Origin: a virus
Taxonomy: Duplodnaviria > Caudoviricetes
IMG/VR virus record: IMGVR_UViG_3300024346_000004
Strand: one strand, 5' to 3'
DNA: 64,000 nucleotides
Shown here: positions 4,678 through 63,588 of the stretch, piece by piece
Layout of the letters: every line of letters starts with the position of its first letter
Position numbering within the stretch: the first letter of the stretch is position 1
The notes under the pieces: generated by a model
What the model was told of the DNA's origin: nothing
Seen by the model: only the letters and a program-made list of their open reading frames with translations
Database searches by the model: none
Translations under genes and position numbers: made by a program

Positions 4678-5118
4678 ATGTGGTATAAAATTGCTCAACA
4701 AAATTTTCAAAATATAGCTGACACAACCTCTCCGACACATGTTTCTGGAGGTGGTAATGCTGGATTTTCTGTCGATTATCCTACAGCACAAAATATTAAA
4801 AAGTCCTTAGATTCACATCAGCCATACCAATTCACTACAACAGATGGTAAAAAATTCTTAGTATTACATGGCAACTATTCTAATGGTGTAGAATATTTTG
4901 ATGTTGGTGGAACTAGTATCGCTGAACAAGATCTAGCACAATGGATGAGAAATAACGGCATGGATCCTACTGTTACACAAATATTAGCTTGTGGAGTAGG
5001 CAATGTTAATCCAGCTACAGGTTTACATCCAGCTATTGATATTACTGGTATAACTAATCTTAGTATCCCTACTACCCCACCAGCCGATACAAATCCAGTT
5101 ATGGTTGGAGTAAGCTAA
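4678..5118 (+). CDS. MWY-leader protein, possible caspase-like (His-Gly/Ala-Cys) peptidase
   Basis: Starts MWYKIAQ; FLVLHG...QILACG dyad pattern. Confidence 0.5.
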   Translation: MWYKIAQQNFQNIADTTSPTHVSGGGNAGFSVDYPTAQNIKKSLDSHQPYQFTTTDGKKFLVLHGNYSNGVEYFDVGGTSIAEQDLAQWMRNNGMDPTVTQILACGVGNVNPATGLHPAIDITGITNLSIPTTPPADTNPVMVGVS

Positions 5119-5798
5119 TGATCGATTACATTACTTTTTATGATAAAAATATTAGAACTTCCAAAAAAGTAAAAGAAATATTCAAATCATTAAGCGAAGA
5201 TCATGATTTCGGACTTGAATTACCAAAATTACCATATTCTCATTCTGCATTAGAGCCTGTTATTGATGCAGCTACAATGAAATTACATCACGACAAACAT
5301 CATAAAAAATATGTAGATAAAATGAATGAGCTTCTTGGTAACAGTGATAAGACTTTAGTTGAATTATTACAAGATCCTAAAGATGTAAAAGATAAAGAAG
5401 CATTTTTAGATAATGCTGGTGGTCATTTTAACCATTCTTATTTCTGGATTACAATGTCCCCTGAAATGAATCAAAAACCATCTGGAAAACTTGCAGATAA
5501 TATTGATAAACAGTTTGGAAGTTTTGATAAGTTTAAAAAAGAATTTATTGAAACGGGAGTCAAGCATTTTGGGTCTGGATGGGTATGGCTTTGTGTTAAT
5601 GATGGTAAATTAAAAATACAAAGTTTTGATAATCAATCTAATCCATACATTGAAAAATGTGGGATTCCTGTTTTGGGATGTGACGTATGGGAACATGCAT
5701 ATTATCTCAAATATCAGAATAATAGAGAGAAATACATTACATCTTGGTTTAAAGTAGTAAATTGGGACTTTATTTCAAAAAAATATAACGGAGAATAA
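5118..5798 (+). CDS. sodA: Mn-type superoxide dismutase with ~30 aa N-terminal extension
   Basis: LPKLPY..ALEP, HHDKHH, NAGGHFNH, GSGWVWL, NQ.NP, DVWEHAYY; GG and Gln residues favour Mn type. Confidence 0.92.
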   Translation: MIDYITFYDKNIRTSKKVKEIFKSLSEDHDFGLELPKLPYSHSALEPVIDAATMKLHHDKHHKKYVDKMNELLGNSDKTLVELLQDPKDVKDKEAFLDNAGGHFNHSYFWITMSPEMNQKPSGKLADNIDKQFGSFDKFKKEFIETGVKHFGSGWVWLCVNDGKLKIQSFDNQSNPYIEKCGIPVLGCDVWEHAYYLKYQNNREKYITSWFKVVNWDFISKKYNGE

Positions 5799-5799
5799 T

Positions 5800-6324
5800 A
5801 TGGATCGTATTGCAACATTAAATAATCTAAACAATGTTATCAATTCTTTAGAATCAAAGGGTAAATATACTTTAGCATCTCAGGTACAAGAAGTATTTGA
5901 AAAAGTAGCTCAAGCAGATATGTCTAGAAAAGATTTTTTATCTAAAGGTGTTAATTGGGCTGCTGGTCTTGGAATGGCCGGTGGTGCTGGGGCTTTAGTT
6001 AAGGACACTATGGACAAAGCTAAGGATAAACAAGATATTCTTAATCAAATGGCAGAACATGGTTATAGATTAGGTATGGGCATGAGAATTAATGTTGCTG
6101 GATCTGGCGTTAGAAATTGGCAAAGATTCCTCAATGACCACTTTGATGGCAGACTAGATGATGATGGACGTTTTGGACAATCTACTATGCTTGTTACTAA
6201 GAACTTCCAAAAAGCTCATGGTATTACTCCAGATGGTGCTGTTGGTCCTGAAACTATGAAAGCAGCATTAAGTCTTCTAGAAGAAAATATGGAAGATTCA
6301 GAAGATCTTCTTGGAATGGAATAA
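5800..6324 (+). CDS. long-leader protein with Tat-like motif and peptidoglycan-binding domain
   Basis: Leader ending EKVAQ; MSRKDFL plus Gly/Ala hydrophobic stretch; VRNWQRFLN...DGRFGQST...FQKAHGITPDGAVGPET (PG_binding_1). Confidence 0.8.
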   Translation: MDRIATLNNLNNVINSLESKGKYTLASQVQEVFEKVAQADMSRKDFLSKGVNWAAGLGMAGGAGALVKDTMDKAKDKQDILNQMAEHGYRLGMGMRINVAGSGVRNWQRFLNDHFDGRLDDDGRFGQSTMLVTKNFQKAHGITPDGAVGPETMKAALSLLEENMEDSEDLLGME

Positions 6325-6326
6325 AG

Positions 6327-6695
6327 ATGAATCTTATTACAAATCTATTAACTTTACATAATCAACTTAAAGTTTATCATTGGCAAACTAGATCTTACGC
6401 TGCTCATATGGCATTTGGTGGAGCTTATGATGCTCTAACATTGCTTATTGATCAATTTATCGAAGTGTTCCAAGGTAAGAATGGTATGTTAAAAGCACAG
6501 AATAACTTTACCATCACTCTTAGAAATCTAAATGGCGATGAAGATGTTACTAAATTCATTGAAGCATTTTTAGATTATCTTATGGGACCTTTAGTAAATG
6601 GTCTAGATACTGCTAAGGATACAGATCTCATGAATATTAGAGATGAAATGTCCGCAGAGCTAAATAAACTGAAATATTTACTTACACTCAGCTAA
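6327..6695 (+). CDS. ferritin/Dps-like four-helix protein (DUF5856-like)
   Basis: QLKVYHWQTRSYAAHMAFG..YD....ID.FIE..QG; NIRDEM...NKLKYLLTL. Confidence 0.8.
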   Translation: MNLITNLLTLHNQLKVYHWQTRSYAAHMAFGGAYDALTLLIDQFIEVFQGKNGMLKAQNNFTITLRNLNGDEDVTKFIEAFLDYLMGPLVNGLDTAKDTDLMNIRDEMSAELNKLKYLLTLS

Positions 6696-6698
6696 AGT

Positions 6699-6722
6699 AA
6701 AGGCCCCATAAAAGGGGCCTTT
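6699..6722. terminator. bidirectional intrinsic terminator
   Basis: aaaggcccc-ataaaa-ggggccttt between convergent genes. Confidence 0.8.
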
Positions 6723-6727
6723 ATTAT

Positions 6728-7108
6728 TTAAAAGTTTCCACAACTTCCACAACCGCTAGAACCTGATGAATCTCCCCCAACGCTAAAAGATTGACCACAG
6801 CCACATCCTTTTTTCATATTAGGATTAGTAACTTTAAATCCATTTTGGTCTTTAATAAAATCAATTTCAGATCCGTTGACTATTTTCATAATATCTGTAT
6901 TGACAACTATTTTGATTTTGTCATCTAAAATAATATCATCAATTTCAGGTACGAATTCTTCTAAGCCTAAATGATACTTATATCCAGCACAACCACCAGC
7001 CGATACACCTAATCTGACACATAATTCCATATCAGGATGTGACTCCATAATAGAAATGATCTCTTCAGATGCTGCTTCGGTAATATTAATTTTTAATTCT
7101 TCTTCCAT
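6728..7108 (-). CDS. iscA: HesB/IscA A-type Fe-S cluster carrier
   Basis: ITEAA, RLGV..GGCAGYKY, NPN...CGCGQSF; extra C-terminal CGSC. Confidence 0.9.
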   Translation of the reverse strand: MEEELKINITEAASEEIISIMESHPDMELCVRLGVSAGGCAGYKYHLGLEEFVPEIDDIILDDKIKIVVNTDIMKIVNGSEIDFIKDQNGFKVTNPNMKKGCGCGQSFSVGGDSSGSSGCGSCGNF

Positions 7109-8366
7109 GCATAAACTCCTGGTATCTAACTACTTCATATTCTTGCAACGAATGACTATAGATATTATCACCAATACAAATAAAACCGATAACATTTGCA
7201 GCTAAAACACTTTCTAAATTAGCTTTACTACATATGACAAAAGGATTCTTCACTGCGCCATATTTTCTTAAAACTAAATATTTTTCTAAATTATTATATT
7301 GTTCCATAAGTGTTTCATTAAGCGTAACTCCTACTTCGAAATTACCACCTAATATATTCAAAACACTATATAAATATTTGATATCAATTTCACTAAAGAA
7401 AAACCAATCAACATCCTTATTATCTAACATTATATTTCTGTATATTGACATACTAGATTTATTACTATATAAATCATTAACTGTATGCTGATTAATCATA
7501 GTAAATTTAGATATAAATTTATAAGGACAAGTTATTTCTTTTCTATCTCTGTTAACTAATGCTTCCCAGTTATGAAGTGTATTAACCGCATCTTCATAAG
7601 TGACATCAAATTCAAGATCTATTAAAGTAGGCTTGATTAATAATCTTTTAAAAGGAGACAATAAGTTAAATTCTTTATTAGAGATACTTATTACTGGTTT
7701 ATTTTTTACATGTAACCAATAGATTAAGTTGTTTGGTAAAGTGATAATCAACTTAGCCTTCTCTGCAAATAAAGCTACACCTTCCGCACTACTGAATTTA
7801 TCCCTCAAATTAATGAAATTAGGGTACTTTATATCATTATATCCCTGATTACCTTGACCGATTAAAATTACTTTGTTATTAGGGAAAAATTCACATACTT
7901 CATTTAAAAATTCTGGCCAATATTTCCATTTATTTTCATCAGGAGTGGAATGATTAGAAGATGGTTGAAATAAAATAAAATCTTCGTAATCTGGTAAATA
8001 TTCATAAGCTCTTGATGAATAATTATATGTGTCTAATAATGATAAATCTTCACCGCCAGATACACTTAATTGAATTGATGTATATTCTCTATCTTGTGGC
8101 AAATTAAAATAAACTTTGTATTCTTTTATTTGTGTTTCTGTTTTCCAAGGAGAACATAGATTTACAAAACTCTGCCAATAAATAGATTCTGCGGGTGTGA
8201 ATAAATAATGCTCACAATTATCAACGAAATCTTGAGCTAAAATAAATTCTTTTAGTTCTGGAAATGGACCTAAAAGAATAATATTTCTAATGTTTCTTCT
8301 TTTAGCATTGGACAGGGAAACAAATACATCTCCCCATCCTCCACCAGTAATACCCCAATTATCCAT
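7086..8366 (-). CDS. GT-B glycosyltransferase, GT9 (heptosyltransferase)-like; paralog of 37780..38985
   Basis: N-terminal GGWGD, ILFQP.S....K.W..W, VILIG, INLRDK...ITLPN. Confidence 0.65.
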   Translation of the reverse strand: MDNWGITGGGWGDVFVSLSNAKRRNIRNIILLGPFPELKEFILAQDFVDNCEHYLFTPAESIYWQSFVNLCSPWKTETQIKEYKVYFNLPQDREYTSIQLSVSGGEDLSLLDTYNYSSRAYEYLPDYEDFILFQPSSNHSTPDENKWKYWPEFLNEVCEFFPNNKVILIGQGNQGYNDIKYPNFINLRDKFSSAEGVALFAEKAKLIITLPNNLIYWLHVKNKPVISISNKEFNLLSPFKRLLIKPTLIDLEFDVTYEDAVNTLHNWEALVNRDRKEITCPYKFISKFTMINQHTVNDLYSNKSSMSIYRNIMLDNKDVDWFFFSEIDIKYLYSVLNILGGNFEVGVTLNETLMEQYNNLEKYLVLRKYGAVKNPFVICSKANLESVLAANVIGFICIGDNIYSHSLQEYEVVRYQEFMHGRRIKN

Positions 8367-9282
8367 TTAAGATTTCTAATTTAGTAGCATGAATTACAGG
8401 ACGAACTAAAGTTAATTTCATAGCTTCATCTCTCATTACTTCATCTGTAAAATCTGCTTCGGACTTTACAGAATCAGTGTGGACAATTAATCTAAATCCC
8501 GCATCCTTGATTAGTTTTTGATATAGATAAAGAAGAGATGCGGATTTATTTTCTAAGACAAAGAAAGCCTTAAGATGAGAAGATAACCATTCTTGACCAC
8601 ATATTCCATCGCTCTTTGTAACAACCCAGTTCTCAGGATGCAAAAGAGCTAAATCATATCTAGTATCTAAAGATTTTACAGATTGGACAGCTGTTTCATC
8701 ATTAGTAGCTTTAATAACAACTTCTCCATTGAAGAAATCAATAATATTTTTAATACTAGACAATGGTTCTGAAATTGATCTCTTGTAAATATCCAAAGCA
8801 GAATCAAGAATGTTTTGTGCTTCTTCTAATTTATTTTCATCTAATAACTCAAGAAGTTTATAATGATCATCTAATCTTCCTGCTAGTGATTTAATATATT
8901 CTTCTACTTCTAATTCAGACATATAAATCATAGGGGATTCAGAATTATTAATTAGCTTAGGCTCTACAACACTAAATTTACATTCTGATTCAATTTGTAT
9001 TCTAAAATATCCCCAAGCTGCATGATCAATATTTAGAAATAATTCATGATGCAGATTACCGTTTTCAGCAAATAAATCTGTAGGAACAATCTGAAATGGG
9101 TTGTGTACATTAGTATCGCAAAGTCCTAGATTTACTGTTAAACCAGCTAATCTTTGTGCAATATGTACGAGATTTTTATTATCGTCAATCCAAGAGTAAA
9201 TACCAGCAGTTAGAGCTTTTTCAGTATCTATGGATTGACTATTCTTTTTCTTGAAGCTTACGCCATTACTAATATTGTTCAT
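8359..9282 (-). CDS. hypothetical protein
   Basis: 307 aa ORF with TATAAT 6 nt upstream of ATG. Confidence 0.7.
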   Translation of the reverse strand: MNNISNGVSFKKKNSQSIDTEKALTAGIYSWIDDNKNLVHIAQRLAGLTVNLGLCDTNVHNPFQIVPTDLFAENGNLHHELFLNIDHAAWGYFRIQIESECKFSVVEPKLINNSESPMIYMSELEVEEYIKSLAGRLDDHYKLLELLDENKLEEAQNILDSALDIYKRSISEPLSSIKNIIDFFNGEVVIKATNDETAVQSVKSLDTRYDLALLHPENWVVTKSDGICGQEWLSSHLKAFFVLENKSASLLYLYQKLIKDAGFRLIVHTDSVKSEADFTDEVMRDEAMKLTLVRPVIHATKLEILNG

Positions 9283-9300
9283 AGATATATTATACAGAGT

Positions 9301-9336
9301 TAAAAAGGAATGAGCAAGGTTAGACTTACCTTGCTC
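9301..9336 (-). terminator. intrinsic terminator closing the putative ncRNA
   Basis: 9-bp stem GAGCAAGGT/ACCTTGCTC (9312-9320/9328-9336) followed on the minus strand by ATTCCTTTTT. Confidence 0.7.
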
Positions 9337-10050
9337 TTATGATCTATTTAATGGGATTACATCACTCGCAAATATGATTTGCCCATTTGTCCACTATTAC
9401 TAGTAAGATCATACAGTGTCCTATTTATACTGGAGGCGGCCCAGTCTAATGTTGGTTTCCTAGTTATATCAGAACGTATACTCAATTGCGATGAATAAGG
9501 TTCTGAATTAAGATTTACACTTTTTTATTTATAGTTCCTGAATGTATTTCTTAAATGTTTCGACAGTCACTGCTTACTTCCAACACGAAACGAGTCTATT
9601 TATGGGTTACTAAATACGCTGATATTGCGATTACATACCCTACTCTACAAGAATGTGCTCGTTTTGTCACTTCTTCACAGAAATATGACACATTCCATGC
9701 CTTTCACTTTCACGAAGTTACCAGGCGTGATTTTGAGATTAATACGACTGTTATATCGTTTCACCTCTAATCATGCATAAAAGCCTTTTGCCGTGTACAT
9801 CAGACCTTTATACTACTCTTACTCTTCAGATTTCGATGTTCGCACAAATTAAGTATGATTGCTGCCACCTTAATTTACATCTTCAATCATAGTTCCACAT
9901 TCTATTGCAAAACCTTAGAGAGATGAGCTTGCTTGAATGACCCTGAGTTGGGCGGGAGCTGTAGAGAATAGCTTTATCCCTTTTTTCACACTCTACTATC
10001 TTACGATGTCAAGCCACCGAGAATCACTTATTCAATTTTCAAAGTACAAC
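9301..10050 (-). ncRNA. putative large structured ncRNA (~740 nt; GOLLD/ROOL size class, family unassigned)
   Basis: No credible ORF in an otherwise gene-dense genome; visibly higher GC; TATAAT upstream; terminator downstream; many perfect helices and GNRA loops (see findings). Confidence 0.7.
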
Positions 10051-10059
10051 ACTATTATA
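10029..10059 (-). promoter_or_regulatory. -10 box TATAAT (10059-10054) followed by boxA-like GTACTTTGAAAATTGAATA (10047-10029)
   Basis: Direct sequence; resembles the rRNA-operon antitermination boxA (GTTCTTTGAAAA type). Confidence 0.55.
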
Positions 10060-10081
10060 CATTATTCTTATTAAAATGCAT

Positions 10082-10429
10082 CTACACTTTTAAATGTTTT
10101 TTGCTATTAACACGAACAATATATTCGCTCCATCGTCTAGCCTCTTCTCCTCCGTACATTTTCCAAATCCAAGCTTCTTTTCTTTCTGGATCTGAAGGTA
10201 TTCTAAATCTATTCTTAGCAGTGTATTCGTGAATATCAATAATATCTGATAACTTCATCATATTTTGCATTGCTAATATTCTAGATAATTCCAACTGTTT
10301 TGAAGAACAATAATTTCTATTATTTCTTCCCCAATCATAACCTTCTTGAGCAATTTTTTGAACATTAGATGGAACAATGAATTTTTCAGATAAATTTTCC
10401 GCTGTTCTATAGAGCTTATTATTGTACAT
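10082..10429 (-). CDS. phage head-associated-like small domain protein
   Basis: P..V...A..G..W...WKMYGGEEARRW resembles the 'AW.LWGGDAG.RW' domain of phage head-morphogenesis regions; starts MYNNKLYRTA; late-type promoter upstream. Confidence 0.55.
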   Translation of the reverse strand: MYNNKLYRTAENLSEKFIVPSNVQKIAQEGYDWGRNNRNYCSSKQLELSRILAMQNMMKLSDIIDIHEYTAKNRFRIPSDPERKEAWIWKMYGGEEARRWSEYIVRVNSKKHLKV

Positions 10430-10438
10430 ATTGTTATT

Positions 10439-10492
10439 TTCTAGAAGAATGTTATATTACCTTTTAAAGGTTCATATATTATTGTAGAAGAA
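10439..10492. promoter_or_regulatory. back-to-back divergent AGG-N17/18-AGAA promoters
   Basis: Minus: AGG 10462-10460, AGAA from 10442 (ATG 10429). Plus: AGG 10468-10470, AGAA 10489 (SD GGAGA, ATG 10526). Confidence 0.65.
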
Positions 10493-10525
10493 ATATTAGA
10501 TTATATTGTTTTTGGAGATTTAGAA

Positions 10526-10828
10526 ATGCTTAATAAATTAGCTTCTATTGCTAACGATTTAGATAATTATGGTATGTACAAGGAAGCGAATGAAATCACT
10601 TCTGTAATGAAGAGACTGTCCGGAATTTTTGATAAAAACGAAGATGTTGATTATCTTGCCATGGCTCATGCACTTAATAATGTTGCTAAAAATGAAGGTT
10701 GGCAAAACTTTAGAGAAAATTATTATGTTGATGGCCAATTCAAAGCTCAACAGTTAGCTAGAGAATTAGAACAAGTAAAAGCAAAAAATCTTTCTGAAGC
10801 GGAAGAAATGCTTAGATCGGAAGAATAA
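10526..10828 (+). CDS. long-leader hypothetical protein
   Basis: LASIANDLDNYGMYKEANEITSVMKRLS leader. Confidence 0.75.
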   Translation: MLNKLASIANDLDNYGMYKEANEITSVMKRLSGIFDKNEDVDYLAMAHALNNVAKNEGWQNFRENYYVDGQFKAQQLARELEQVKAKNLSEAEEMLRSEE

Positions 10829-11416
10829 ATGGCTACTATTGAAGATTTAGCAGATTTAGCATTAGAATTAGATAATAATAGTGCTCATAGATTAGCAGAT
10901 AAAATTACTTTAGCAATGAACAAATTTGCTAATGAAGATTGGGACCATGAATACGATATGGTCAGAAATGAAATGGAAACTGCTAAAAGAGCTATTGAAG
11001 GCATTGAAGATGTAGTGGGCGAAGATGGCGAAGGGAATTTGATGGCTTGGGTACAGTCTAAAATTTCTAATGCTGTTCAAATGCTAAAAGGTGTCTCTGA
11101 TTATTTAGTCAGCGAAGAAACTGTTGGTCAGAAAACAGCTGCTAAAAATGATGGCAAGAAACTAAACAAGCCTTTCAGAACTCCGGGTGGTCCTAAAAAG
11201 TTCTCTGTTTATGTAAAGAACGATAAGGGTAATATCATTAAGGTTAATTTTGGCTCGCCAGACATGGAAATTAAAAGAGACGACCCAGAACGTAGAAAAA
11301 ATTTCAGAGCCAGGCATAATTGTGACAATCCAGGTAAAAAGTGGAAAGCTCGTTGGTGGTCATGTCGCAATTGGGAAGCTGGGAGATCTGTATCTGACAA
11401 TCTTAAGGGTAAATAA
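10829..11416 (+). CDS. long-leader protein with DHE..M/AWVQSKI module and basic C-terminal DUF6321-like domain
   Basis: KLNKPFRTPGGPKKFSVYVKN...VNFG...RRKNFRARHNC...ARWWSC.W, a recurrent domain in large phages. Confidence 0.75.
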   Translation: MATIEDLADLALELDNNSAHRLADKITLAMNKFANEDWDHEYDMVRNEMETAKRAIEGIEDVVGEDGEGNLMAWVQSKISNAVQMLKGVSDYLVSEETVGQKTAAKNDGKKLNKPFRTPGGPKKFSVYVKNDKGNIIKVNFGSPDMEIKRDDPERRKNFRARHNCDNPGKKWKARWWSCRNWEAGRSVSDNLKGK

Positions 11417-12117: not shown

Positions 12118-12204
12118 AATCTAACCATCCATATGACAGCAAAACATCTATGGACAAAAGAACAAGTTATAAACTTTAAAAATAGTACAAAGTAGAATAT
12201 TTTA

Positions 12205-13011: not shown

Positions 13012-13024
13012 AAAGCATAAATAG

Positions 13025-13050
13025 AAAAGAGGACTGAAAAGTCCTCTTTT
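13025..13050. terminator. bidirectional intrinsic terminator
   Basis: aaaagaggact-gaaa-agtcctctttt. Confidence 0.85.
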
Positions 13051-13051
13051 T

Positions 13052-23394: not shown

Positions 23395-23712
23395 ATGTCC
23401 AAGTATATCAAAAAAAGTAGTAAATTTGAAAAAGTATATAAAGTTGAATTGACAGAGAATTTAGACGATACTTTAAATCAATACGATGAAAAAAATTATT
23501 ATGTAGATCCTGATGGTCAATGGGAAAATGCTATACCTATTTCCAAGTTCAGAAAAACATTAACTGACGAAGAACTTCATTTGCCATCAGCTGTAGATTC
23601 TAATCATATTGTATTTTTTGAAGAAGATGGAGATGTACAGGTAATGAATATGGTTCCTGAACATCATTTAGATTCTTTGCATAACCAGAAATCAAAATAT
23701 ACTAAGAAGTAG
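23395..23712 (+). CDS. hypothetical protein with short leader MSKYIKKS
   Basis: ORF track; late-type promoter. Confidence 0.65.
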   Translation: MSKYIKKSSKFEKVYKVELTENLDDTLNQYDEKNYYVDPDGQWENAIPISKFRKTLTDEELHLPSAVDSNHIVFFEEDGDVQVMNMVPEHHLDSLHNQKSKYTKK

Positions 23713-54475: not shown

Positions 54476-54709
54476 TTATAACTTGTCTAATCCTAGATCA
54501 TCATAAACTTCCCAAATTGGCCCAGCATTGTCTAATACTGTTTGATGCAATATAAAATAATCTTCCCAAGAATTAAAAAACACATTTCCCATGCTGTCTA
54601 TAATTTTTTCTTCATTCCGATATATATAATAGTCTTCAGGCCATCTTCTAGATCTAATTTTTAATCCTAAATCTATCATTGGACGAGACATTTGACTAAA
54701 TAATTTCAT
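54476..54709 (-). CDS. divergent DUF2829/Tad2-like small protein
   Basis: From ATG 54709 (SD GGAGA): F......G.KIR...W...YI...WEVY. Confidence 0.45.
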   Translation of the reverse strand: MKLFSQMSRPMIDLGLKIRSRRWPEDYYIYRNEEKIIDSMGNVFFNSWEDYFILHQTVLDNAGPIWEVYDDLGLDKL

Positions 54710-54802
54710 ATTATCTCCCACCAGTACATTATATCTTCTAAAGGTTATATCTTGTATAATTGACAAATAATATCTATAATATTATTGCTTTTAGGTAACT
54801 TT

Positions 54803-57800
54803 ATGTCTCAAATCAAATTCGTCAACACATCTTCAATTGTAAGTATCAAAATAGCAAATATGTATGATTCTATTGGTGATTATTCTTACTCAGATAAATT
54901 TGACAGATATGCGAATTTAATGCTCAAAATCGCACAACAAGAACAAAATGAAGAGACTGAAGATATTATTGAAGAAACACCTGAAAATGAACATGCGCAA
55001 TATATTGTAGACCATCCTTTAGCTGATGAACAATCCTCTAAATTAAAATCTCAAATTAGTGAACAAGATCATGATTTATTTGATGAATTTTATAATGCTT
55101 GGAGCTCAGGAAATACCATCAATGAATCTATCAAACAGCTATATGATCGAGTAAATAAACCGGAAAATAAGAGCCTTGGAAATTATTTAAGGGTTATAGT
55201 TGAAAATGTTATTCAAGCATTCTATAAAATTCCAGACTCATCATTGTATGAATTTACTGATCAATTTCTAAAAGGTAATCTTAAATTTGCTGAAGATGAG
55301 CTTTTATTATCTTTAAGATATTCAAAGCCAGAACAAATTATAAGATTTGACAAACAATATAAAATTGATTCAGCTGTTAAATATTTACCTGATGGTCATG
55401 CTAAAAAACTATTTTCAGAATATTTATATTATCATTCTAATCCAGAAAATTTAGGTCAAATATTTAATGATCTTATGAATCTTTATGATTTAGCTGATTA
55501 TTTTGAAAATTCATCGGAACTTCAAGCTTACTTAAATGATGCGTCTGCATTTGATTCTAAAATTCCTGAAATGAATAAAGAGGAAATTGTAAATTTCAAA
55601 AAAGCTGGATTATCTTTTTTACCTGGAAAAAATAACTACCAAGAACAACTTAACATCCGATGCCAAGATAATAAGATATATTATTTTATAAAAAATATTA
55701 TTTTTTTTAGAGGCATACAAGAACCTGTTCAAATCAGCAACAATGTGTTAGAACGATTGACTGCGCATTATTCTCCTGAACAAGTCAGAGTAATTTTTGA
55801 TAATATTAAAAGTCTAATGAGAGATTCTGATGCAGAACATATCATCAGAATAAATACAATACTTCCATTTGATCAAGCTATCGCTAAGTATAAAGAATTA
55901 CAACATGATGGAACTGAACTAAACCTATATTACAAACAAGTTCTGGGCAAAGATTATGAATTATTTAATTTAGAGCCTGATCAAGTAAACCAGACCCTAT
56001 ATTTAGTTTTGATAGAAGCTGACAAAGAAAAAGCAGAAATATACATAGGATCATTATCTGATCTTTTAAATAATTATGTTAGAAGTGCTATCACAAAATC
56101 TAATGCTAAATATTTCTTGGATTATATTACACAATTTGACAGAGACTATGTTCAACAATATTTAAAAACTTATTATCTTTCTACTTACATCAAATTTCGC
56201 CCTGACAGATTACAAGAAATTCATCCTATTGAGATTCTGAAGCATAATAATCCTGACATTGTTTTAGCCTATCATAAATCTAATCCAGAATTTTCAAGCT
56301 TAAGTGTAGATGATATTGAAAAGTATTCAGAATTTTATAAAAATAATTCAAATGCTGTAGATATTCCATATAAAGATTTAGAACCTCATATTGCAAATAA
56401 GAATGTTCAAAATTATATTTTGTTTGGTTCTACTGACCCTAATAAAGCTAAAATAGCTGACAAGATTTATAAAGCTAACAGTTATAGATCAAGAGAAATC
56501 GCAGCTCGTTTTAAAGACAGTGATATTATCGATATATCTAAGATAGGTTTACTAAATATAAGTAATCCAAGATTTGCACATTTATCATTAACTGAATTAA
56601 ATTTACTTTCTGATAAAGTAAACCATTTTGAGACATTAGAAAGAATTAAATTAGTTAAAGATAGTTTCAAGAATCCTAGAAATACAGCATATCATAACTT
56701 TGAAGAAGGAAGTGCTGATTACAATAAGCTCTTATATATTTTATTTCATAATTATGATCTAAGAGGGCGAAATCCTCAATTGCTTATCAAACTTTTAGAT
56801 CTTCATGCAAAAGATGAAATGATAACAGAATTAGGACTAGATGATGTTAATCATATGATCCGTAATAGGGTTGCTTGTGATTTACCAAATATTAATGTTT
56901 CAGATGCAAAAATACATGTAAGAAATAGAAAAACTATTATACATGATATAGAAGTTAAAGTATACAATAAATACCATACAGCAATTAAAGCACAAAACAC
57001 TGAGATCGCTAAATATCCTATAAATCAAATATTAGATTTCGTAACAAAATATGATAATGCTTTAAATACAGATGAAGATGCTGAAAGTTATTTACCTAAA
57101 GGTGTAACAGCTAATCAAGCTGGTGATGCATTGCAAGCTATAAATGATGGGCATGGTTTATTAATTTATTTAAATAGAGAATCAATGATAAAATTTTATA
57201 AATTAATAATGGATAAAATTATTGGGATTAATCCTGATTATTCTGACTCTACTACTAAACTTATGCCTATATATGCAGCAACAGCTGCTACTGCAGATAT
57301 AAATTATTATTTACCTGATGTCATAACAGAAGATTTTATAAAAGAAATTACAAGTACTCAAATTCCCAATAAATTAAATATAGACTTTTCAAAAGCTGAA
57401 GTAAGGTTAAATTCAAATACACAACTAGAATATGTAAATGAATCTATGGCACTTCTCAGATTATTTAATAAATCATTACCTAATTTTCTTGATAAATTTA
57501 TTATCGCATCAGGAAAAGATTACGGTAAGATATTTAAATTTTCGGAAATGGATGATTATGTTCAAAGTATTGTAATACATTCTGCTGCGCAAAAGTTTGA
57601 CAAAATTGATCCTGGTCCGGGTTTATCTGATTATATCATTCAGCAAATGAATAATAAAAATTTATTTCAACTTGCTAAAGTAGCGAGAATGTGGAATAAA
57701 GAAATAAATATTGCTGATGAAAAAATGAGTATAGCCTCCAAATCTCTCGTGTCTGAATTATCTAAAATGTATGATGTAAGTGAACTCTCTGATTTAATTA

Positions 57801-58549
57801 AAACTTCATCATCATTAATTTTCTTCAGTAAGATTGAAGTGCAAGAACCTAGATTAGCAAAAGAATTTGATAAACATTTTGAATTTTCTGATAAACCGGA
57901 TTTTCATGATCATTTAGGTATGGATGAAAATGATAGATTATTAAAAATGTATCAAAATATAGAAATATTATACAAACATAGAACTAACTTTCCTCAGCCA
58001 GAGTGGTCAGATATTGAAGAAGAATATTACGGATATACAGCTAGATTCTTACACAGAAATGACACAAGAGGTATGTTTATAGGAAATTATGCTGGATGCT
58101 GTCAACATCCAGATAGTTATGCTGCAACTCTTGCATTAGATGGTCAAATATCAGATAAATCTTCGTTCTTTATAATAGAAGATCAAAAAGGTCAAATGAT
58201 CCTGGGTAGTTATGTTTGGGAAGATGATAACGGCAATATCTGTTTTGATAGTTTTGAAACAATTGGAAGCAAATTATTCGGTAGCGTAGAAGCACAAACA
58301 ATAGTTGACAAACTTATTTATGATGTAGCAAAAAAAATGAACACTAATGTTAATTTTGGTTCTCAATCTAGCGGTGCATATAGACCAAGACAATTTAAGA
58401 AAGACACAAAAACACCATTTAAGAATAACGCTAGACCATGGGAAAATCCATACGTAAAAACTATATTAGATTTAAATTCAAAACAAATTAATACTAAGGA
58501 CTTGTATGTAGCTGATTCTGAAAGCCAAATAATTATTATTCAACGATAA
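54803..58549 (+). CDS. large long-leader protein with C-terminal GxxxxCCQH (PcfJ/GNAT-like) domain
   Basis: Leader IKIANMYDSIGDYSYSDKFDRYANLMLKIAQ; C-terminus RFL.RND.RG.FIG.Y.GCCQH...FFII...SYVW...FDSFE; start ATG 54803. Confidence 0.65.
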   Translation: MSQIKFVNTSSIVSIKIANMYDSIGDYSYSDKFDRYANLMLKIAQQEQNEETEDIIEETPENEHAQYIVDHPLADEQSSKLKSQISEQDHDLFDEFYNAWSSGNTINESIKQLYDRVNKPENKSLGNYLRVIVENVIQAFYKIPDSSLYEFTDQFLKGNLKFAEDELLLSLRYSKPEQIIRFDKQYKIDSAVKYLPDGHAKKLFSEYLYYHSNPENLGQIFNDLMNLYDLADYFENSSELQAYLNDASAFDSKIPEMNKEEIVNFKKAGLSFLPGKNNYQEQLNIRCQDNKIYYFIKNIIFFRGIQEPVQISNNVLERLTAHYSPEQVRVIFDNIKSLMRDSDAEHIIRINTILPFDQAIAKYKELQHDGTELNLYYKQVLGKDYELFNLEPDQVNQTLYLVLIEADKEKAEIYIGSLSDLLNNYVRSAITKSNAKYFLDYITQFDRDYVQQYLKTYYLSTYIKFRPDRLQEIHPIEILKHNNPDIVLAYHKSNPEFSSLSVDDIEKYSEFYKNNSNAVDIPYKDLEPHIANKNVQNYILFGSTDPNKAKIADKIYKANSYRSREIAARFKDSDIIDISKIGLLNISNPRFAHLSLTELNLLSDKVNHFETLERIKLVKDSFKNPRNTAYHNFEEGSADYNKLLYILFHNYDLRGRNPQLLIKLLDLHAKDEMITELGLDDVNHMIRNRVACDLPNINVSDAKIHVRNRKTIIHDIEVKVYNKYHTAIKAQNTEIAKYPINQILDFVTKYDNALNTDEDAESYLPKGVTANQAGDALQAINDGHGLLIYLNRESMIKFYKLIMDKIIGINPDYSDSTTKLMPIYAATAATADINYYLPDVITEDFIKEITSTQIPNKLNIDFSKAEVRLNSNTQLEYVNESMALLRLFNKSLPNFLDKFIIASGKDYGKIFKFSEMDDYVQSIVIHSAAQKFDKIDPGPGLSDYIIQQMNNKNLFQLAKVARMWNKEINIADEKMSIASKSLVSELSKMYDVSELSDLIKTSSSLIFFSKIEVQEPRLAKEFDKHFEFSDKPDFHDHLGMDENDRLLKMYQNIEILYKHRTNFPQPEWSDIEEEYYGYTARFLHRNDTRGMFIGNYAGCCQHPDSYAATLALDGQISDKSSFFIIEDQKGQMILGSYVWEDDNGNICFDSFETIGSKLFGSVEAQTIVDKLIYDVAKKMNTNVNFGSQSSGAYRPRQFKKDTKTPFKNNARPWENPYVKTILDLNSKQINTKDLYVADSESQIIIIQR

Positions 58550-58814
58550 TACATTCTGCTTCATCATGTCTTAAAATAATGTAATATCCTCTGATAAGTA
58601 TTTCTATCGGGCCTTTATTATTTATATGTCTCACTATCATAACTATGGTATTTTTAGTAAATCCAAGTTCAGACAATCTATTTCTAAAAGGCCCAACAAC
58701 AGACGTTACTTTATATTCATGACCATCTGTCCCGCAGCATAATTTTGTAGACATATTAGTATATTCTATTTTATTGTGAGCTGTAGACGGTTTAGCAAGA
58801 AGAAAATCAAACAC
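58536..58814 (-). CDS. feoA: FeoA-family SH3-like protein
   Basis: RNRLSELGF.....V......GPIEI.IRG..I.LR..EA..I.V; true start is probably the internal Met (MSTKL). Confidence 0.8.
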   Translation of the reverse strand: MFDFLLAKPSTAHNKIEYTNMSTKLCCGTDGHEYKVTSVVGPFRNRLSELGFTKNTIVMIVRHINNKGPIEILIRGYYIILRHDEAECIIVE

Positions 58815-58862
58815 AGGTCTATAATATCATAATCCTGTAAAATATAGTAGGACAAAACAATT

Positions 58863-61376
58863 ATGTGGTATCAAAAAATAGTAGAAGCTGGTGCGTTAGA
58901 TGAGTTGGCTGGTGGAATGGATACTAGTAAATCACCAGAAGATATATTATGGGAAATACGACATAATTATTCTATTTCAAAATTACCAAATTTTGAACAT
59001 CTTTATAAATATCTTCTTGACTTGATTGACAACAAGTATACGAGTGATTATTTAACATCTGTTATAACACACTTGATTTATATGTATTCGAAAGATGCTG
59101 AAACTGTACATAGAGCTAATAGATTAGTTCCGTTAATGATAAAGAATAATAAAATTTCTCAAAACGAAGAAATGATGTTATTGCCTGACACTTTCTCACA
59201 TATGGGTAGTACATTAGAGACACATAACACTGTATATAATTTCGGATATAATAAACTCTTAGCATACACAAAAGAAGGCATTGATCTTCCAAAGCGTGTT
59301 CGTATATATATAATGATGAATATGGACACACTATCTAGTTCAAGCATGCAACAGAGTGAAGCAAGAACAGAAATTAAAAAATATATTACGGATAAAGATC
59401 CTATGTATGAATTTCTTAATGCTGATAAATATTCTGGAGAACAAATACTTAAAAATATTATTGATAACATACAATCAGATGCTGGTAGGCAACTTTATTA
59501 TGATGTTGTCCAATATTCTGGATTACCTATTGACGATTATTTATATTTATTAGATGAAGCTCACAATGAAAGAGTAATGGATGATCTACCCAAAGTTTAT
59601 GATCTTTTAATAAATGATCAAAAATTTGATAAATATATAGAATATTTAGATAAAAATAAAAATAAATTTAGTCCAGAGCATTTTGAAAATAGATTCGTTG
59701 GTGCTTTCAAATACGGAATGACTTATTTTATGGGTGATTTTTGGTATGAAATATTTAAAAACAATAGACAAATTATAAATGAAAAAATTTATCCTTCTTG
59801 TGAATATTATTACAAACCTTATTTACACAGATTAGGTGTTGGACCGAAAGAAGAAATAATCAAAGAATACATAAAAGCTTCATTGGAAAATAAAGATTTA
59901 GCAAATAGGAAATTTAAAGAAATACCCACAAAAGAAGAAATTGATGCTTATGTGCAAAAAAACTCTGAAAAACTTAATTCATATCAGTCTCAACGAGCTC
60001 AAAATACACAAACTCAAAATACAACACCACAAAGTGCTAATTCTCCTATACTCGATATATTTCAAAAAAATCTACAAAATGGATATATTGAAAAACATGA
60101 TATTACTGGAGAATATGAAAAATTACTAAATGATATTCTAAATTCATTTGGATTCAATTCAGATGATCAAAATATCATAAGTGATATTAAATCAAGATTA
60201 AAGATTTATGTATTTAAAAATTCTGAATTTTATAAAGATTTATTAAATACATCACTTCAAGAATATGGTTTTATCACACCTACATTAATGAACTCTTGTG
60301 GATATTTTGTTCCTAGATTTTCGGATAACAATAATGGTCCTTCAATATTTATCAACGAATTTATATCTGAAGACTATGTAAATAGTGACAATATTATTAA
60401 CAATCTTGGAATAACCAAAGACATGATTAATATGTCTACAGCTGCTCATGAATTAGCCCATTTAGCAGATTATGTTATCAAAGGCGGATCAGAAGTATTC
60501 AGTAATGTAGATCCTAAAACATCCTTAAAAGAAGGCGAAGCATACAATCAATCTAGATTGTATTTATCAGACATTAGAGAAATTGTTGCAAGAGTATATG
60601 GAAATACTTCTTATATGATTGAAATTCTGCATAAAAGAATTGAAGAAATGAGAACATCGGAAATCATTAGAAAAGCTGTTGTAGAAGAATTATCAGATAT
60701 GCTGATGAGTAATGAAGCAAGCTGGTTGAATGCTACTCCTATGGTATCTGAACAAAAACTTCAAGAATGGGCAGAAAAAAGATTTGGACCTTATGAAAAT
60801 TCTGAACAACCTTATACCCAAGCTACTGAAGATTACCTAAAACAAAAACAACTAGCAATTAAATTTTATGAAGAAGCTGGTAAGGTCAATCGAGAAGACA
60901 TAAAAAAAGCTACTATCGAAGAAATACAATCATTAGAAGATCAAGCTGAAATATTAAAAACAAGAGTAAGTGAAGATAGCGAAGAATATAAAAAACTTCA
61001 AGAAGACATCAAAAAGTTAAAATTAAAAATCAGAAATATTGAAGCGGGTGCATTTGATCATGATATTTATACTATCGTTAAATCTGTAGCGTCTTATATA
61101 GCATTTAAAGATATCAAAATAACTAATGAAATAGCTGCTGATCCTAATTATGTTTCTCCAATATCAATTAGAAAAGACCAGATGGCCGCAAATACAACGG
61201 GAGATACAACACCACTTTCAAATCAAGAACTTAAAACTATGAGAGATTTTGATTTAGGACAGGTCGCTCAAGGTACAGAAGGTGGTAAAACTTTAAAAGA
61301 ACCTAAACCTTCATTTATGTCATATGATATCTATAATCCTAAATGGAGAGAAGAATATCCAGACACATTCAAATAA
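58863..61376 (+). CDS. MWY-leader large protein with zincin metallopeptidase (HExxH) domain
   Basis: MWYQKIVEA; GYF...IFIN...TAAHELAHLADY...Y...EIVAR. Confidence 0.7.
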   Translation: MWYQKIVEAGALDELAGGMDTSKSPEDILWEIRHNYSISKLPNFEHLYKYLLDLIDNKYTSDYLTSVITHLIYMYSKDAETVHRANRLVPLMIKNNKISQNEEMMLLPDTFSHMGSTLETHNTVYNFGYNKLLAYTKEGIDLPKRVRIYIMMNMDTLSSSSMQQSEARTEIKKYITDKDPMYEFLNADKYSGEQILKNIIDNIQSDAGRQLYYDVVQYSGLPIDDYLYLLDEAHNERVMDDLPKVYDLLINDQKFDKYIEYLDKNKNKFSPEHFENRFVGAFKYGMTYFMGDFWYEIFKNNRQIINEKIYPSCEYYYKPYLHRLGVGPKEEIIKEYIKASLENKDLANRKFKEIPTKEEIDAYVQKNSEKLNSYQSQRAQNTQTQNTTPQSANSPILDIFQKNLQNGYIEKHDITGEYEKLLNDILNSFGFNSDDQNIISDIKSRLKIYVFKNSEFYKDLLNTSLQEYGFITPTLMNSCGYFVPRFSDNNNGPSIFINEFISEDYVNSDNIINNLGITKDMINMSTAAHELAHLADYVIKGGSEVFSNVDPKTSLKEGEAYNQSRLYLSDIREIVARVYGNTSYMIEILHKRIEEMRTSEIIRKAVVEELSDMLMSNEASWLNATPMVSEQKLQEWAEKRFGPYENSEQPYTQATEDYLKQKQLAIKFYEEAGKVNREDIKKATIEEIQSLEDQAEILKTRVSEDSEEYKKLQEDIKKLKLKIRNIEAGAFDHDIYTIVKSVASYIAFKDIKITNEIAADPNYVSPISIRKDQMAANTTGDTTPLSNQELKTMRDFDLGQVAQGTEGGKTLKEPKPSFMSYDIYNPKWREEYPDTFK

Positions 61377-61379
61377 ATA

Positions 61380-61405
61380 AAAGCCAGAGAATATTCTCTG
61401 GCTTT
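61380..61405. terminator. bidirectional intrinsic terminator
   Basis: aaagccagagaa-ta-ttctctggcttt. Confidence 0.8.
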
Positions 61406-61409
61406 CTTA

Positions 61410-61664
61410 TTATTCGTCAAATATTATCCAATCATCATTAACAATATCTTGAAGGTATGGACAATAAGCTTCAATACCATCCTGAAGATTGATTAAGAAA
61501 AATGTAGCATAATCAATCTCACTGGTATCTACAATAGTTTCATCAAATTCACCCTCATCATCTTGTTTTGTATTACCTAAAGCAATCCAAGATACTTCAT
61601 CCCAGCAAGTTCTACGAGCTTTGTATCCTTGCTTCAAATATTTAAGAGTCTGCACAAATTTCAT
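61410..61664 (-). CDS. DUF2829/Tad2-like anti-defence nucleotide-sponge protein
   Basis: MKF...L..LKQG.KARR..W...Y.P...DI..DDW family pattern; SD GAGGTG. Confidence 0.7.
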   Translation of the reverse strand: MKFVQTLKYLKQGYKARRTCWDEVSWIALGNTKQDDEGEFDETIVDTSEIDYATFFLINLQDGIEAYCPYLQDIVNDDWIIFDE

Positions 61665-61732
61665 ATCTCACCTCTATGTATCTATTATATCATAGAAAGG
61701 TCATAAATGATTATATCTGTAAAAAAAGAACT

Positions 61733-62296
61733 ATGTGGTACAGATACGCAGCAATTACAATTAACAATAAAGAAATTCCAGAAGAAGATTTTTTTAATTC
61801 TTTTTCCAATGTTGCTTCTAATGAAAATGAACAACACTTCTGGATAGTAAATGGTGAGAAATATGCACCACCTAAAAATTATGGTCATCAACATACTTCA
61901 ATGATGTTAAAATTAAAACATGGAATGATGCCAGGTGATGCAGATTTTGAAGAACATCCTATTGAATTTGTAGGGAGAGGCTTAGGACAATTTGCTCAAG
62001 GCGGAACAGTCAGAGTTACTAAAATGATAGATATGGCTGACATAACTATCTATGGCCCAACAAATGATCTCACCCTAAATAATATTATAAAATTTGTTAC
62101 TCCAGATTCAATCAACAAATGGGAAATATTAAATGTACCTAATAATCCGCATGGCAGAGGCTTTGATTCCTTAAAACAATCTATAAACAATCTCTCATTA
62201 CAAAATACCACAAATGTAAAAGAAGATATTAATATTGCCCCTATACAAAGAGTTGATAATACACAATCTTTCTATAAAGGAAGATCAGGAGACTAA
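61733..62296 (+). CDS. MWY-leader hypothetical protein
   Basis: Start inferred at ATG 61733 (MWYRYAA); AGG 35 nt upstream. Confidence 0.7.
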   Translation: MWYRYAAITINNKEIPEEDFFNSFSNVASNENEQHFWIVNGEKYAPPKNYGHQHTSMMLKLKHGMMPGDADFEEHPIEFVGRGLGQFAQGGTVRVTKMIDMADITIYGPTNDLTLNNIIKFVTPDSINKWEILNVPNNPHGRGFDSLKQSINNLSLQNTTNVKEDINIAPIQRVDNTQSFYKGRSGD

Positions 62297-62299
62297 GAT

Positions 62300-62998
62300 A
62301 TGTGGTACAGGACAGCAATTGATTTTGGAAAATTATTTGGTATTGAACAACCACAACAAACAAATACTCCTGAACCTATGGAAAAACCCGGAGTGCCTGA
62401 TGATGTTTTTAGAGAAGTGGTGAGATCAAATATCCCTGATCCAGTAAATCAAATAGATCATTCCAAAGGCGATTATCATTTAATTCTCACTGGAACTGGA
62501 GCTATTCATCAAGGTTCAAGCCATAGCAACTATATAGATAAAATATTAGATCAATCTCGTAAAAGTCTTCGTAATAATCCAGAAATATCAGAAAAATATA
62601 ATATCAGAAACTTGCCAGACAAAGCTTATGGTCCAATGGATTATGCAGAAAGAATAAATTTTGATTCTGGACCTGATCAACCTTTTTTAGCACAAGAAGA
62701 TGCTGTCACTGAAATTCTACATGATTATTTTGACAAAGGTATAAGAATCAGTCACATGGGTTCAATGATGTCTGTAAATTCTGTACACGTTCCAACATAT
62801 ACACAAATGCAAAAGTTATTTGAAATTATTAATTTAATACAACCCGCAAATATAAGATTTAAAATTAATACTGGAAAAGGTTTGTTTGATAGAGTATATA
62901 ATGTAAATAAAGTTGCTGATTTTAAAAATGACATTAAAGATTTTGAAATGAATAGAAAAAAAATACCATCTCTTATGAGTCAATGGAGAGATTATTAA
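62300..62998 (+). CDS. MWY-leader hypothetical protein
   Basis: MWYRTAI; weak similarity to the previous gene (H...G.[VI]R[VI] pattern). Confidence 0.7.
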   Translation: MWYRTAIDFGKLFGIEQPQQTNTPEPMEKPGVPDDVFREVVRSNIPDPVNQIDHSKGDYHLILTGTGAIHQGSSHSNYIDKILDQSRKSLRNNPEISEKYNIRNLPDKAYGPMDYAERINFDSGPDQPFLAQEDAVTEILHDYFDKGIRISHMGSMMSVNSVHVPTYTQMQKLFEIINLIQPANIRFKINTGKGLFDRVYNVNKVADFKNDIKDFEMNRKKIPSLMSQWRDY

Positions 62999-62999
62999 T

Positions 63000-63359
63000 A
63001 TGTGGTATAGAATATCAGCAGACAATATAGATATCAAAAAAACATGGACAAAAACATCAAATAACCAAGAATCAAATGAAGAATGGCTAGAAAGACATAA
63101 AGTAGATAGAGAAGGCGATAAATACGTTTTTTATCATGGCTCTAGATTAGACTTAGAAGAGCTTAGATCAGGCTCTTTATTAGCTACATCTCCACAAGAA
63201 GCTGAAGATTTTGGTAATACTAACTTTTGGAATGATAAAAGAAAAACATTCAAAGTATATAAAGTAGTAGTAAATGCGGATGAAATACACCCAGGATATT
63301 GGGCTAGTCTTGTAAATGATCATCCAGTAGAAATATTATATAAGAAAAGAAATATATAA
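63000..63359 (+). CDS. MWY-leader protein, ADP-ribosyltransferase-like fold
   Basis: MWYRISA; VFYHGS...LATS...A..F...VYKV.V....I. Confidence 0.5.
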   Translation: MWYRISADNIDIKKTWTKTSNNQESNEEWLERHKVDREGDKYVFYHGSRLDLEELRSGSLLATSPQEAEDFGNTNFWNDKRKTFKVYKVVVNADEIHPGYWASLVNDHPVEILYKKRNI

Positions 63360-63360
63360 A

Positions 63361-63588
63361 ATGTGGTATTCATTAGCTGCTAGAACTAAAACATATATCT
63401 ACAATGAAGAAGAAAAAACATTGGCTGAACATTTAGAAGATATATTCCCTTATGCAAATTCGGTAGATATATATTATCTTAAATCAAATGTTCAAAAATT
63501 AGCTATGAATGATGAAGATGTAATTAGAATACTCAGAAAAGCAGATTACGGAGATATTTTTCCTACATATCAAAAAAGATGTAGATAG
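63361..63588 (+). CDS. MWY-leader small protein
   Basis: MWYSLAA. Confidence 0.65.
   Translation: MWYSLAARTKTYIYNEEEKTLAEHLEDIFPYANSVDIYYLKSNVQKLAMNDEDVIRILRKADYGDIFPTYQKRCR

Follow-up and report, generated by a model that had tools for sequence, protein, structure and literature searches.

A six-residue N-terminal MWY tag on unrelated proteins of an uncultured jumbo phage clade, a candidate signal for head loading and processing

Genes starting with MWY

We analyzed a 64,000-nucleotide stretch of phage DNA (hereafter the window; bases 46574-110573 of contig G000, a 165.9-kb linear IMG/VR virus record with ~31% GC and a CheckV estimate of ~46% of the genome), in which several genes open with the same short peptide, Met-Trp-Tyr (MWY), typically followed by a basic residue, any residue and Ala or Ser. 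Judged from sequence, the phage is a member of an uncultured freshwater jumbo phage clade, related to Bacillus phage G through its head module. Megablast against phage records returned no match. The relative G004 (358 kb, 89%-complete) has homologues for 124 of the 246 contig open reading frames (ORFs), at a median protein identity of 49%; gene calls of the contig and of G004 are simple longest-ORF calls, giving 246 and 436 ORFs, respectively.

All ten peptides listed in an original prediction, made from the window alone, were recovered at their positions, and the six genes said there to start with MWY (genes A to F, Table 1) are real, with six of the seven ATGTGGTAY copies in the window sitting at these starts. 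Across the contig the same pattern occurs ten times, as opposed to zero for a reversed-pattern control. Counting N-terminal tripeptides bore out the assertion that chance is an unlikely origin: of the 246 contig ORFs, 8 begin with MWY where composition predicts 0.15 (Poisson P = 6e-12), and of the 436 G004 ORFs, 15 do so where 0.22 are predicted (P = 1e-22), MWY being the commonest N-terminal tripeptide there. Internally, MWY is found once in the contig, at the 61733 start, and never in G004. The former is an internal ATG of ORF 61676-62296, supported as a start because the orthologue in L009 begins directly with MWYRYAA. The four MWY genes at 61733-63588 are in tandem as originally described, abutting one another, and tagged genes indeed differ after the tag, the six window proteins being mutually dissimilar beyond it (all BLASTP E > 0.1). 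Another contig ORF, starting MWYYRDMNF at contig position 160739, was rejected as tagged, as it is devoid of a basic residue at position 4 and of Ala. Elsewhere in IMG/VR, a scan for MWYK[ILVMF]AQ yielded 39 stretches, all but four of them true ORF starts, on contigs with 27-47% GC and of up to 479 kb.

Table 1. Tagged and leader-bearing genes of the window (positions in the window; aa, amino acids).
Feature	Position	Strand	Remarks
Gene A, 146 aa, MWY-tagged	4678..5118	+	Tag MWYKIAQ, bases 4678-4698; G004 orthologue starts MWYRYSQ
Gene B, 837 aa, MWY-tagged	58863..61376	+	Tag MWYQKIVEAG, shifted register (K at residue 5)
Gene C, 187 aa from internal ATG, MWY-tagged	61733..62296	+	Tag MWYRYAA; opens the tandem array
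Gene D, 232 aa, MWY-tagged	62300..62998	+	Tag MWYRTAI
Gene E, 119 aa, MWY-tagged	63000..63359	+	Tag MWYRISA, indel-rich linker, conserved body ETNEEW..YVFYHGSR (ART-PolyVal-like region)
Gene F, 75 aa, MWY-tagged	63361..63588	+	Tag MWYSLAA; G004 orthologue starts MWYRESG
Minimal-leader gene, 105 aa	23395..23712	+	MSKYIKKSS, then KFEKVY
Possible minimal-leader gene, 149 aa	15505..15954	+	MSKWIKVSQ; K-V-S-Q fits the core; membership uncertain
MSKWIKVDE gene, 125 aa	13929..14306	+	Asp where Ala/Ser expected; matches phrog_23735; G004 orthologue starts MEIKRIVE
MYNNKLYRTAE gene, 115 aa	10082..10429	-	QKIAQ at residues 25-29
Long helical leader, example	5800..6324	+	Leader ends FEKVAQ
Further long-leader genes	10526, 10829, 12205, 13648, 14309, 39930(-), 44495, 54785		

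Conservation at the protein level

We assembled 97 distinct ORFs starting with MWY or MWF from the contig, G004, metagenome relatives and IMG/VR contigs, and setting aside those fetched by the search pattern itself left an unbiased subset (n=69). The consensus of this subset is M-W-Y, K/R at residue 4 in 74%, A/S/T at residue 6 in 81% and next Q, I, A or V, while 14 further unbiased tags follow a register shifted by one (MWY-x-[KR]-...-A), such as MWYQKIVEAG and MWYNRTILAA.

Whether protein or RNA is conserved had been raised as a check of the original prediction, and the codon variety at residues 4 and 6 places the conservation at the protein level. Among the collected tags, the basic residue 4 is encoded by six codons (AAA/AAG/AGA/AGG/CGA/CGT), Ala at residue 6 by all four (GCT/GCA/GCC/GCG) and Tyr by TAT or TAC, with Y changed to F in two genes. 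Upstream DNA of tagged genes is not conserved, neighbouring genes in the arrays overlap or abut, and inspection of upstream regions by eye disclosed no clear promoter in common. The variants MSWY and MMWY furthermore keep the peptide with the DNA shifted. A nucleotide-level element, be it a translation initiation enhancer or a transcription start, that encodes MWY incidentally would find support in the invariant ATGTGGTA, which M-W plus the first two Tyr bases likewise require, and in the use of TAC for 33 of the 95 Tyr residues at a genomic GC content of ~31%, a share not set against genome-wide codon usage. However, downstream of these bases the conservation tracks amino acids, and several tagged genes overlap the gene before them. 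Given varied K/R and Ala codons, unconserved upstream DNA and the MSWY/MMWY shifts, we consider an element acting purely at the nucleotide level very unlikely.

Portability and cargo of the tag

As would be expected of a T4-type system, one short N-terminal peptide is common to unrelated proteins: the 97 MWY/MWF-start proteins fall into 36 BLAST-unrelated body families, and the window itself has six. Tagged arrays vary among relatives, with four tandem genes in the window, seven in L009 (five of them abutting or overlapping) and a different five in G004, and a contig protein outside the window that starts MWYRKAS has a G004 orthologue without the tag. For other genes the tag persists. Gene D has a 78%-identical G004 orthologue that also starts MWYRTAI, as well as an L009 orthologue starting MWYKHAI. 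Analogously, seven of seven full-length homologues of gene B (61-82% identical) start MWYQK, and the 914-aa G004 homologue starts MWYSRIIESA. In the family of gene E, where nine of the ten homologues P0011-P0020 have the MWY start, the alignment (A3) displays a conserved tag, then an indel-rich linker (variable, up to ~20 residues), and then a conserved body.

Several of the tagged bodies resemble enzymes. In relatives, a 361-aa protein starting MWYKLAQ matches ART-PolyVal (PF18760), a family of ADP-ribosyltransferases (ARTs), with 41.6 bits, above the gathering cut-off of 31.2, and gene E weakly matches the ART region of the 1664-residue phrog_21376 profile (positions 520-590, E 0.005). Relatives also carry the tag at the head of a NUDIX hydrolase and of a PcfJ-like protein, and a P-loop kinase was read from sequence among the tagged bodies. 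Gene B is a putative metallopeptidase, an assignment based only on an invariant HExxH plus a Glu 26 residues further downstream; the fold prediction of its HExxH region (A4; mean predicted local distance difference test, pLDDT, 53) was too poor for a structure search, a PDB sequence search with the 837-aa profile gave nothing useful, and neither this protein nor its alignment retrieved relatives when used as query for related loci in viral contigs. Pfam and PHROG scans of the window MWY proteins returned no Pfam family and essentially nothing else, gene A being without a family in either. ART domains occur in polyvalent proteins, for which Iyer et al. (PMC5512222, as cited in PMC7824862) infer injection alongside the phage DNA, and T4 Alt is a packaged, processed ART (PMC9026906).

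Long, mid-length and minimal leaders

A second class of N-terminal peptide coexists with the tag, a helical leader of ~35 residues that ends in ...FEKVAQ or ...MKKIAQ. The gene at 23395 connects the long form to a minimal one: its homologues start MFKKAS or MFKKTS, then KFEKVY, and its G004 orthologue has a full long leader, ...HNLFMKQAS, then EFDKDY. By this comparison long and minimal leaders interchange among orthologues at one junction, where an aromatic residue, K, x, A/S/T and S are always kept. Of the forms that were originally grouped with the MWY tag, two stand, MSKYIKKSS as a true minimal leader, given the leader exchange, and MSKWIKVSQ as a possible one, judged by its K-V-S-Q and not by orthologues. 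The two others fare less well: MSKWIKVDE, with its Asp, is probably not a member, and the MYNNKLYRTA protein more likely bears a leader of ~29 residues because of its internal QKIAQ.

Several observations concern the surroundings of these genes. The 1254-aa long-leader ORF at window positions 54785-58549 (+) was called from a TTG start; its true start is probably the Met of MSQIKFVNTSS, as the L009 orthologue starts MSHIKFSKIAS, and the leader then ends LMLKIAQ at about residue 45. A Tad2/DUF2829-like gene (window 61410-61664, -) separates gene B (837 aa) from the tandem array, a position kept in L009-L011, with more copies beyond the window at contig 112-114 kb. Past the window end there is also a nearly GATC-free block of ~32 kb (contig G000 127226-159791) with 4 sites, as opposed to 45-120 in other 30-kb stretches. 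The block accounts for 30% of the ORFs, but all 8 MWY genes and all 14 long-leader genes lie outside it (P = 0.054 for the MWY genes by themselves, 3e-4 for both sets), a weak clue to timing.

Head module and protease of relatives

The head module is not on the window's contig, for which reason all evidence on protease and scaffold was taken from relatives. The head operon of G004 starts with the large terminase, seven ORFs without family match, a 175-aa MWY protein and the portal, and continues with a 1379-aa protein, a 562-aa scaffold-like protein, a 217-aa ORF and the 284-aa major capsid protein. Residues 52-243 of the 1379-aa protein constitute a head maturation protease, fused to a long scaffold. 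Compared with Bacillus phage G, the capsid protein is 47.5-49% identical to gp27, the portal 28% to gp14 and the protease 38% to gp19, and the clade by this similarity has the head module of phage G.

We modeled the protease domain from a 60-sequence alignment (pLDDT 94.3). T4 gp21 is its closest structural match (Z 10.1, root-mean-square deviation 2.5 A over 129 residues), the herpesvirus assemblins follow with Z 7-9, and His87 and Ser138 are invariant. The model thus assigns to the relatives the gp21/assemblin-fold prohead serine protease that a T4-type system would employ; the contig itself does not have it. Searches with Pfam Peptidase_S77 and Gp23 against six genomes found no match and are uninformative, the controls likewise giving none, and a PDB sequence search with the protease domain gave nothing useful. 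Within the gp21/assemblin-fold domain (A2) four further residues are invariant, the cysteines at positions 148, 151, 162 and 203 of the first row, which probably form a zinc-binding insert, and CPxC zinc ribbons recur in the scaffold tails. The G004 portal (L053:8118-10499 (-), 793 aa) ends in a DUF559/MTES_1575 restriction-endonuclease-like domain at residues ~706-777.

The tag is found within the head module itself. Among 80 IMG/VR loci, the small gene directly upstream of the portal carries it in most parsable non-redundant head modules, and the same holds for most of the modules with a protease identity of 60% or more; examples are MWYRKVV, MWYKQVL, MWYRIAQ, MWYRLSQ, MSWYRLAK and MMWYRLAQ. 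At L076:6942-7418 (+) in G002, the portal-adjacent longest ORF reads ...KVWYRLSQ, and translation from a GTG would yield (M)WYRLSQ and so bring the tag back. Conversely, seven of seven contigs above 250 kb with a genuine MWYK.AQ start encode a G-like protease.

These findings bear on the idea that the peptide addresses proteins to a membrane, to secretion, to an intracellular phage compartment, or to a hub protein outside the head. Many sorting systems can use short N-terminal motifs, but the 6-7 residues of the tag have no hydrophobic core, twin arginine or lipobox: signals of the Sec, Tat or lipoprotein kind (a core of at least 7-8 residues, twin arginine, lipobox Cys) are absent, and polar linkers or enzyme domains come next. 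Where checkable, moreover, the tag is confined to genomes with a G-like head module, and a head-operon gene is among those tagged. We regard such a destination as distinctly improbable.

When the protease domain (A2) was modeled in complex with tagged ART-like cargo (A3), the prediction scored 0.05 against a mark of 0.32, a result that argues in neither direction on binding.

Bacillus phage G (NC_023719.1, bases 3280-93999) displays an N-terminal tag of its own, [ML]-K-R-L-[IK]-K-K-[AS] and variants, on gp5, 9, 10, 12, 13, 17, 20, 38, 53, 56, 57, 111, 117, 126 and 141. The set includes gp13, the small gene just upstream of the portal gp14, and two ART-like proteins (..KLMHGTS, ..ELYHHTS). Ahead of its catalytic domain the protease gp19 has FPVKIAG, LVKTAA and VVKIAP. 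The tagged gene products are not named in the text on phage G particle proteomics.

A motif common to leaders and protease-scaffold fusions

Using nothing but the leaders, we derived a core, [KR][ILVMFYT][AS][QSG], corresponding to the end of the long leader and of MWYKIAQ. Ranked by internal copies of this core, the top two of the 436 G004 proteins are the protease-scaffold fusion and a 344-aa neighbour, both of the head operon. The fusion has 7-18 copies in six genomes, compared with 1.5-2.8 in residue shuffles (4.7-6.5 times enriched, P <= 0.0004 each); permuted motifs reached 0-4 copies, and capsid protein and terminase have none. An exhaustive profile search extended the sample to 2,826 protease-domain homologues. 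Among the best 150 representatives (50% identity clusters), 112 are fusions of at least 900 residues, and together these contain 844 core copies against 203 expected (~fourfold, median z 4.5, 72% individually significant).

When every gapped tetrapeptide of the scaffold parts was scanned without bias, K.AS came out with 410 copies against 86, at least two of them in 89 of the 112 proteins. It ranks below only cysteine motifs and a TEKQL/E.QL repeat, and R.AS and K.AQ are high as well. An artefact of local composition was rejected as the cause, other orderings of K, A and S giving 53-201 copies against the 410. The second scaffold repeat, (I)TEKQL / E.QL, occurs 327 times beyond residue 300 (P0021-P0170), where 36 would be expected, and 76 of the 112 proteins have two or more copies. 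Near the other end of the protein, most fusions of the clade nearest G004 have ...[KR]TAS ~30 residues from the N-terminus, and the fusion in the closest relatives starts MY[KR]VAKGG. Since the motif repeats through a scaffold that is fused to the protease, as do cleavage sites in T4 gp22 and herpes scaffolds, [KR]-x-Ala followed by [S/Q/G] is the probable specificity of this protease. The assemblins, for comparison, cut between Ala and Ser.

The same repeats would equally well suit binding motifs, and the chief rival explanation is an uncleaved docking tag that binds a head component (capsid interior, portal or scaffold), with the scaffold K-x-A-S as points of attachment. Several features agree with docking alone: invariance in the tag covers W-Y plus a basic residue and does not extend to the position following Ala, folded domains come directly after some tags, and targeting and processing determinants of the T4 peptide are separable (PMC9026906). 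On the other hand, ...[KR]TAS is conserved in the N-terminal regions of the proteases at a position expected for self-processing, the long leaders end exactly in the motif with variable linkers next, and proteases of the gp21/assemblin fold characteristically trim scaffolds and leaders. We consider an uncleaved tag unlikely, and it too would tie the tag to head assembly.

Proposed role of the tag

Aggregated, the data lead us to propose that MWY-[KR]-x-[AS] is a minimal N-terminal tag for head loading and processing, working like the capsid-targeting sequence (CTS) of T4, a reading to which we assign a probability of roughly 0.55. During prohead assembly, the tag would dock its protein onto an internal core built of the protease-scaffold fusion, with the invariant Trp-Tyr supplying affinity. 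The basic-x-Ala that follows resembles the predicted cut sites of the gp21/assemblin-fold protease in its own scaffold and in the long leader, and cleavage may occur after Ala, by analogy with herpesvirus assemblin. The freed enzymes (ADP-ribosyltransferase-like, NUDIX, kinase, putative metallopeptidase, plus many unknowns) would be retained in the head and reach the host together with the DNA, and the tandem array at 61733-63588 could represent a variable locus of internal proteins as in T-even phages. Together with the protein-level conservation and portability of the tag, the common core and the tagged head-module gene, the leader exchange fits two labels for one head-assembly machine.

Several points weigh against this proposal. 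Without a head module on the contig, protease and scaffold have to be read from relatives at a median of 49% protein identity, and fusions from related phages are non-independent samples. Cleavage at the scaffold motif is, for its part, only probable, by analogy. The strict scaffold core is present in only 19 of 69 (28%) unbiased tags, and K/R at residue 4 together with A/S/T at residue 6 in only 45 of 69. The residue after Ala differs, being Q/I/A/V in tags and S/Q/G in scaffold sites, and W-Y, the most conserved part of the tag, has no scaffold counterpart, P5/P4 being weakly hydrophobic there. Finally, in some proteins only 2 residues separate the tag from the strand that opens a folded domain (MWYKLAQ-PKIMYIMRGPSGAGKST), which could hinder cutting.

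The targeting or propeptide role that the original prediction gave the tag is hence upheld in part. Conservation of the protein, portability, a core common to the scaffold, a tagged gene in the head module and the exchange of leaders speak for it; the low share of strict-core tags, the different residue after Ala and the probable loss of MSKWIKVDE as a member do not. Likewise, the statement that the tag ends like the long leader holds for the [KR]-x-A core, common to both, but for the strict core only in the minority of tags given above.

A signal for degradation has also to be weighed, either a ClpX-type N-terminal degron or a ClpS N-degron exposed after Met removal, which would time the removal of host-takeover enzymes. 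W-Y-K-I bears a loose resemblance to 'N-motif 1' of ClpX (polar-T/hydrophobic-hydrophobic-basic-hydrophobic). A ClpP gene follows shortly after the window end (contig 117825-118424), and Bacillus phage G encodes ClpP and ClpX (PMC12484599). A degron, however, would leave unexplained the tag on a conserved head-operon gene, the swap with a 35-residue helical leader and the motif common to the scaffold. Methionine aminopeptidase leaves Met before Trp in place, so that no ClpS degron would be exposed. This explanation is improbable.

More tentatively, and with rather less than even odds, head loading by such tags may extend to the whole phage-G-like jumbo clade: a portable tag of 6 residues, the shortest capsid-loading tag known, would fill the head with exchangeable enzymes, the protease-scaffold fusion acting as carrier and the tag as pseudo-substrate, and tag dialects would co-evolve with the protease (MWYKxA in freshwater, [ML]KRL[IK]KK[AS] in phage G). 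A parallel tag exists in phage G, which can be grown in culture, and the idea thus lends itself to direct testing. If the tag works as proposed above, it marks which of the hundreds of unknown giant-phage genes reach the host with the DNA, and supplies candidates for first-strike takeover and anti-defence enzymes. A head lineage unrelated to that of T4, with its shorter tag and scaffold-fused protease, would then come under the capsid-targeting principle known from T4, and a 6-residue handle would be at hand for loading foreign proteins into large capsids.

Comparison with known systems

New here are the sequence, its brevity, the phage-G-type head, the fusion of protease and scaffold and the coexistence of two leader classes; the principle is already known from T4 and phiKZ-like phages. 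Our literature search recovered no paper that describes the tag and none containing MWYKLAQ, MWYKIAQ or MWYRLAQ, with matches to 'mwyk' and 'mwyr' being unrelated, and such leaders go unmentioned in a 2026 jumbo-phage review and a 2021 comparative paper.

Prp, a host cysteine protease found mainly in Firmicutes, removes very short leaders with an aromatic pair from unrelated proteins, L27 and the capsid and scaffold proteins of staphylococcal phage 80alpha, cutting between Ala and Ser; its leader is not a loading tag. No sequence match to the MWY tag is seen.

Herpesvirus assemblin has the same protease fold and likewise unites protease and scaffold in one polypeptide. The consensus of its maturation and release sites is (V/L/I)-x-Ala followed by Ser, Ala then Ser as in the K-x-A-S repeats here. 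Unlike in herpesviruses, the motif described here has a basic residue at P3 and a hydrophobic one at P2, and the herpes sites serve the self-release of protease and scaffold rather than the tagging of cargo.

The phiKZ-like giant phages cut at (S/A/G)-x-Glu, and their propeptides are long and mutually dissimilar, unlike one common 6-residue tag. Their lineage is unrelated to the phage here, yet a gp21-like prohead protease trims many of their head and ejection proteins at a short consensus (SPN3US gp245, phiKZ gp175; PMC10052503, PMC7411985).

Polyvalent proteins offer a parallel on the side of the cargo: ART-PolyVal is named for them and PcfJ-like is a family listed by Pfam, and both are found among the tagged bodies. 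In polyvalent proteins (PMC5512222) the domains are joined in one giant multidomain protein, in contrast to the separate small genes here, each with its own tag.

The closest parallel in proposed working is the T4 CTS, carried by IPI-III and Alt and removed by gp21 (PMC9026906). In both, a short N-terminal peptide (10-19 residues in T4) heads unrelated, fast-evolving proteins, ADP-ribosyltransferases are among the cargo, loci of tagged genes are variable and the protease fold is the same. Targeting determinants of the CTS are N-terminal (residues 4 and 7) and processing determinants lie at its C-terminal end (residues 8 and 10; PMC9026906), an order that W-Y and then basic-x-Ala may reproduce here. 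In contrast, at 6-7 residues the tag is shorter than any described CTS and coexists with a second, 35-residue helical leader, and the head is of the phage-G type, with a 284-aa capsid protein lacking a delta domain and a protease fused to at least 1100 residues of scaffold. There is no sequence similarity either: T4 MKTYQEFIAE, which is cut after L/I-x-Glu, ends in Glu, whereas MWYKxA ends in Ala. Having no Glu at the predicted P1, the tag is not a homologue of the T4 CTS, though it would be CTS-like in its proposed mode of action.

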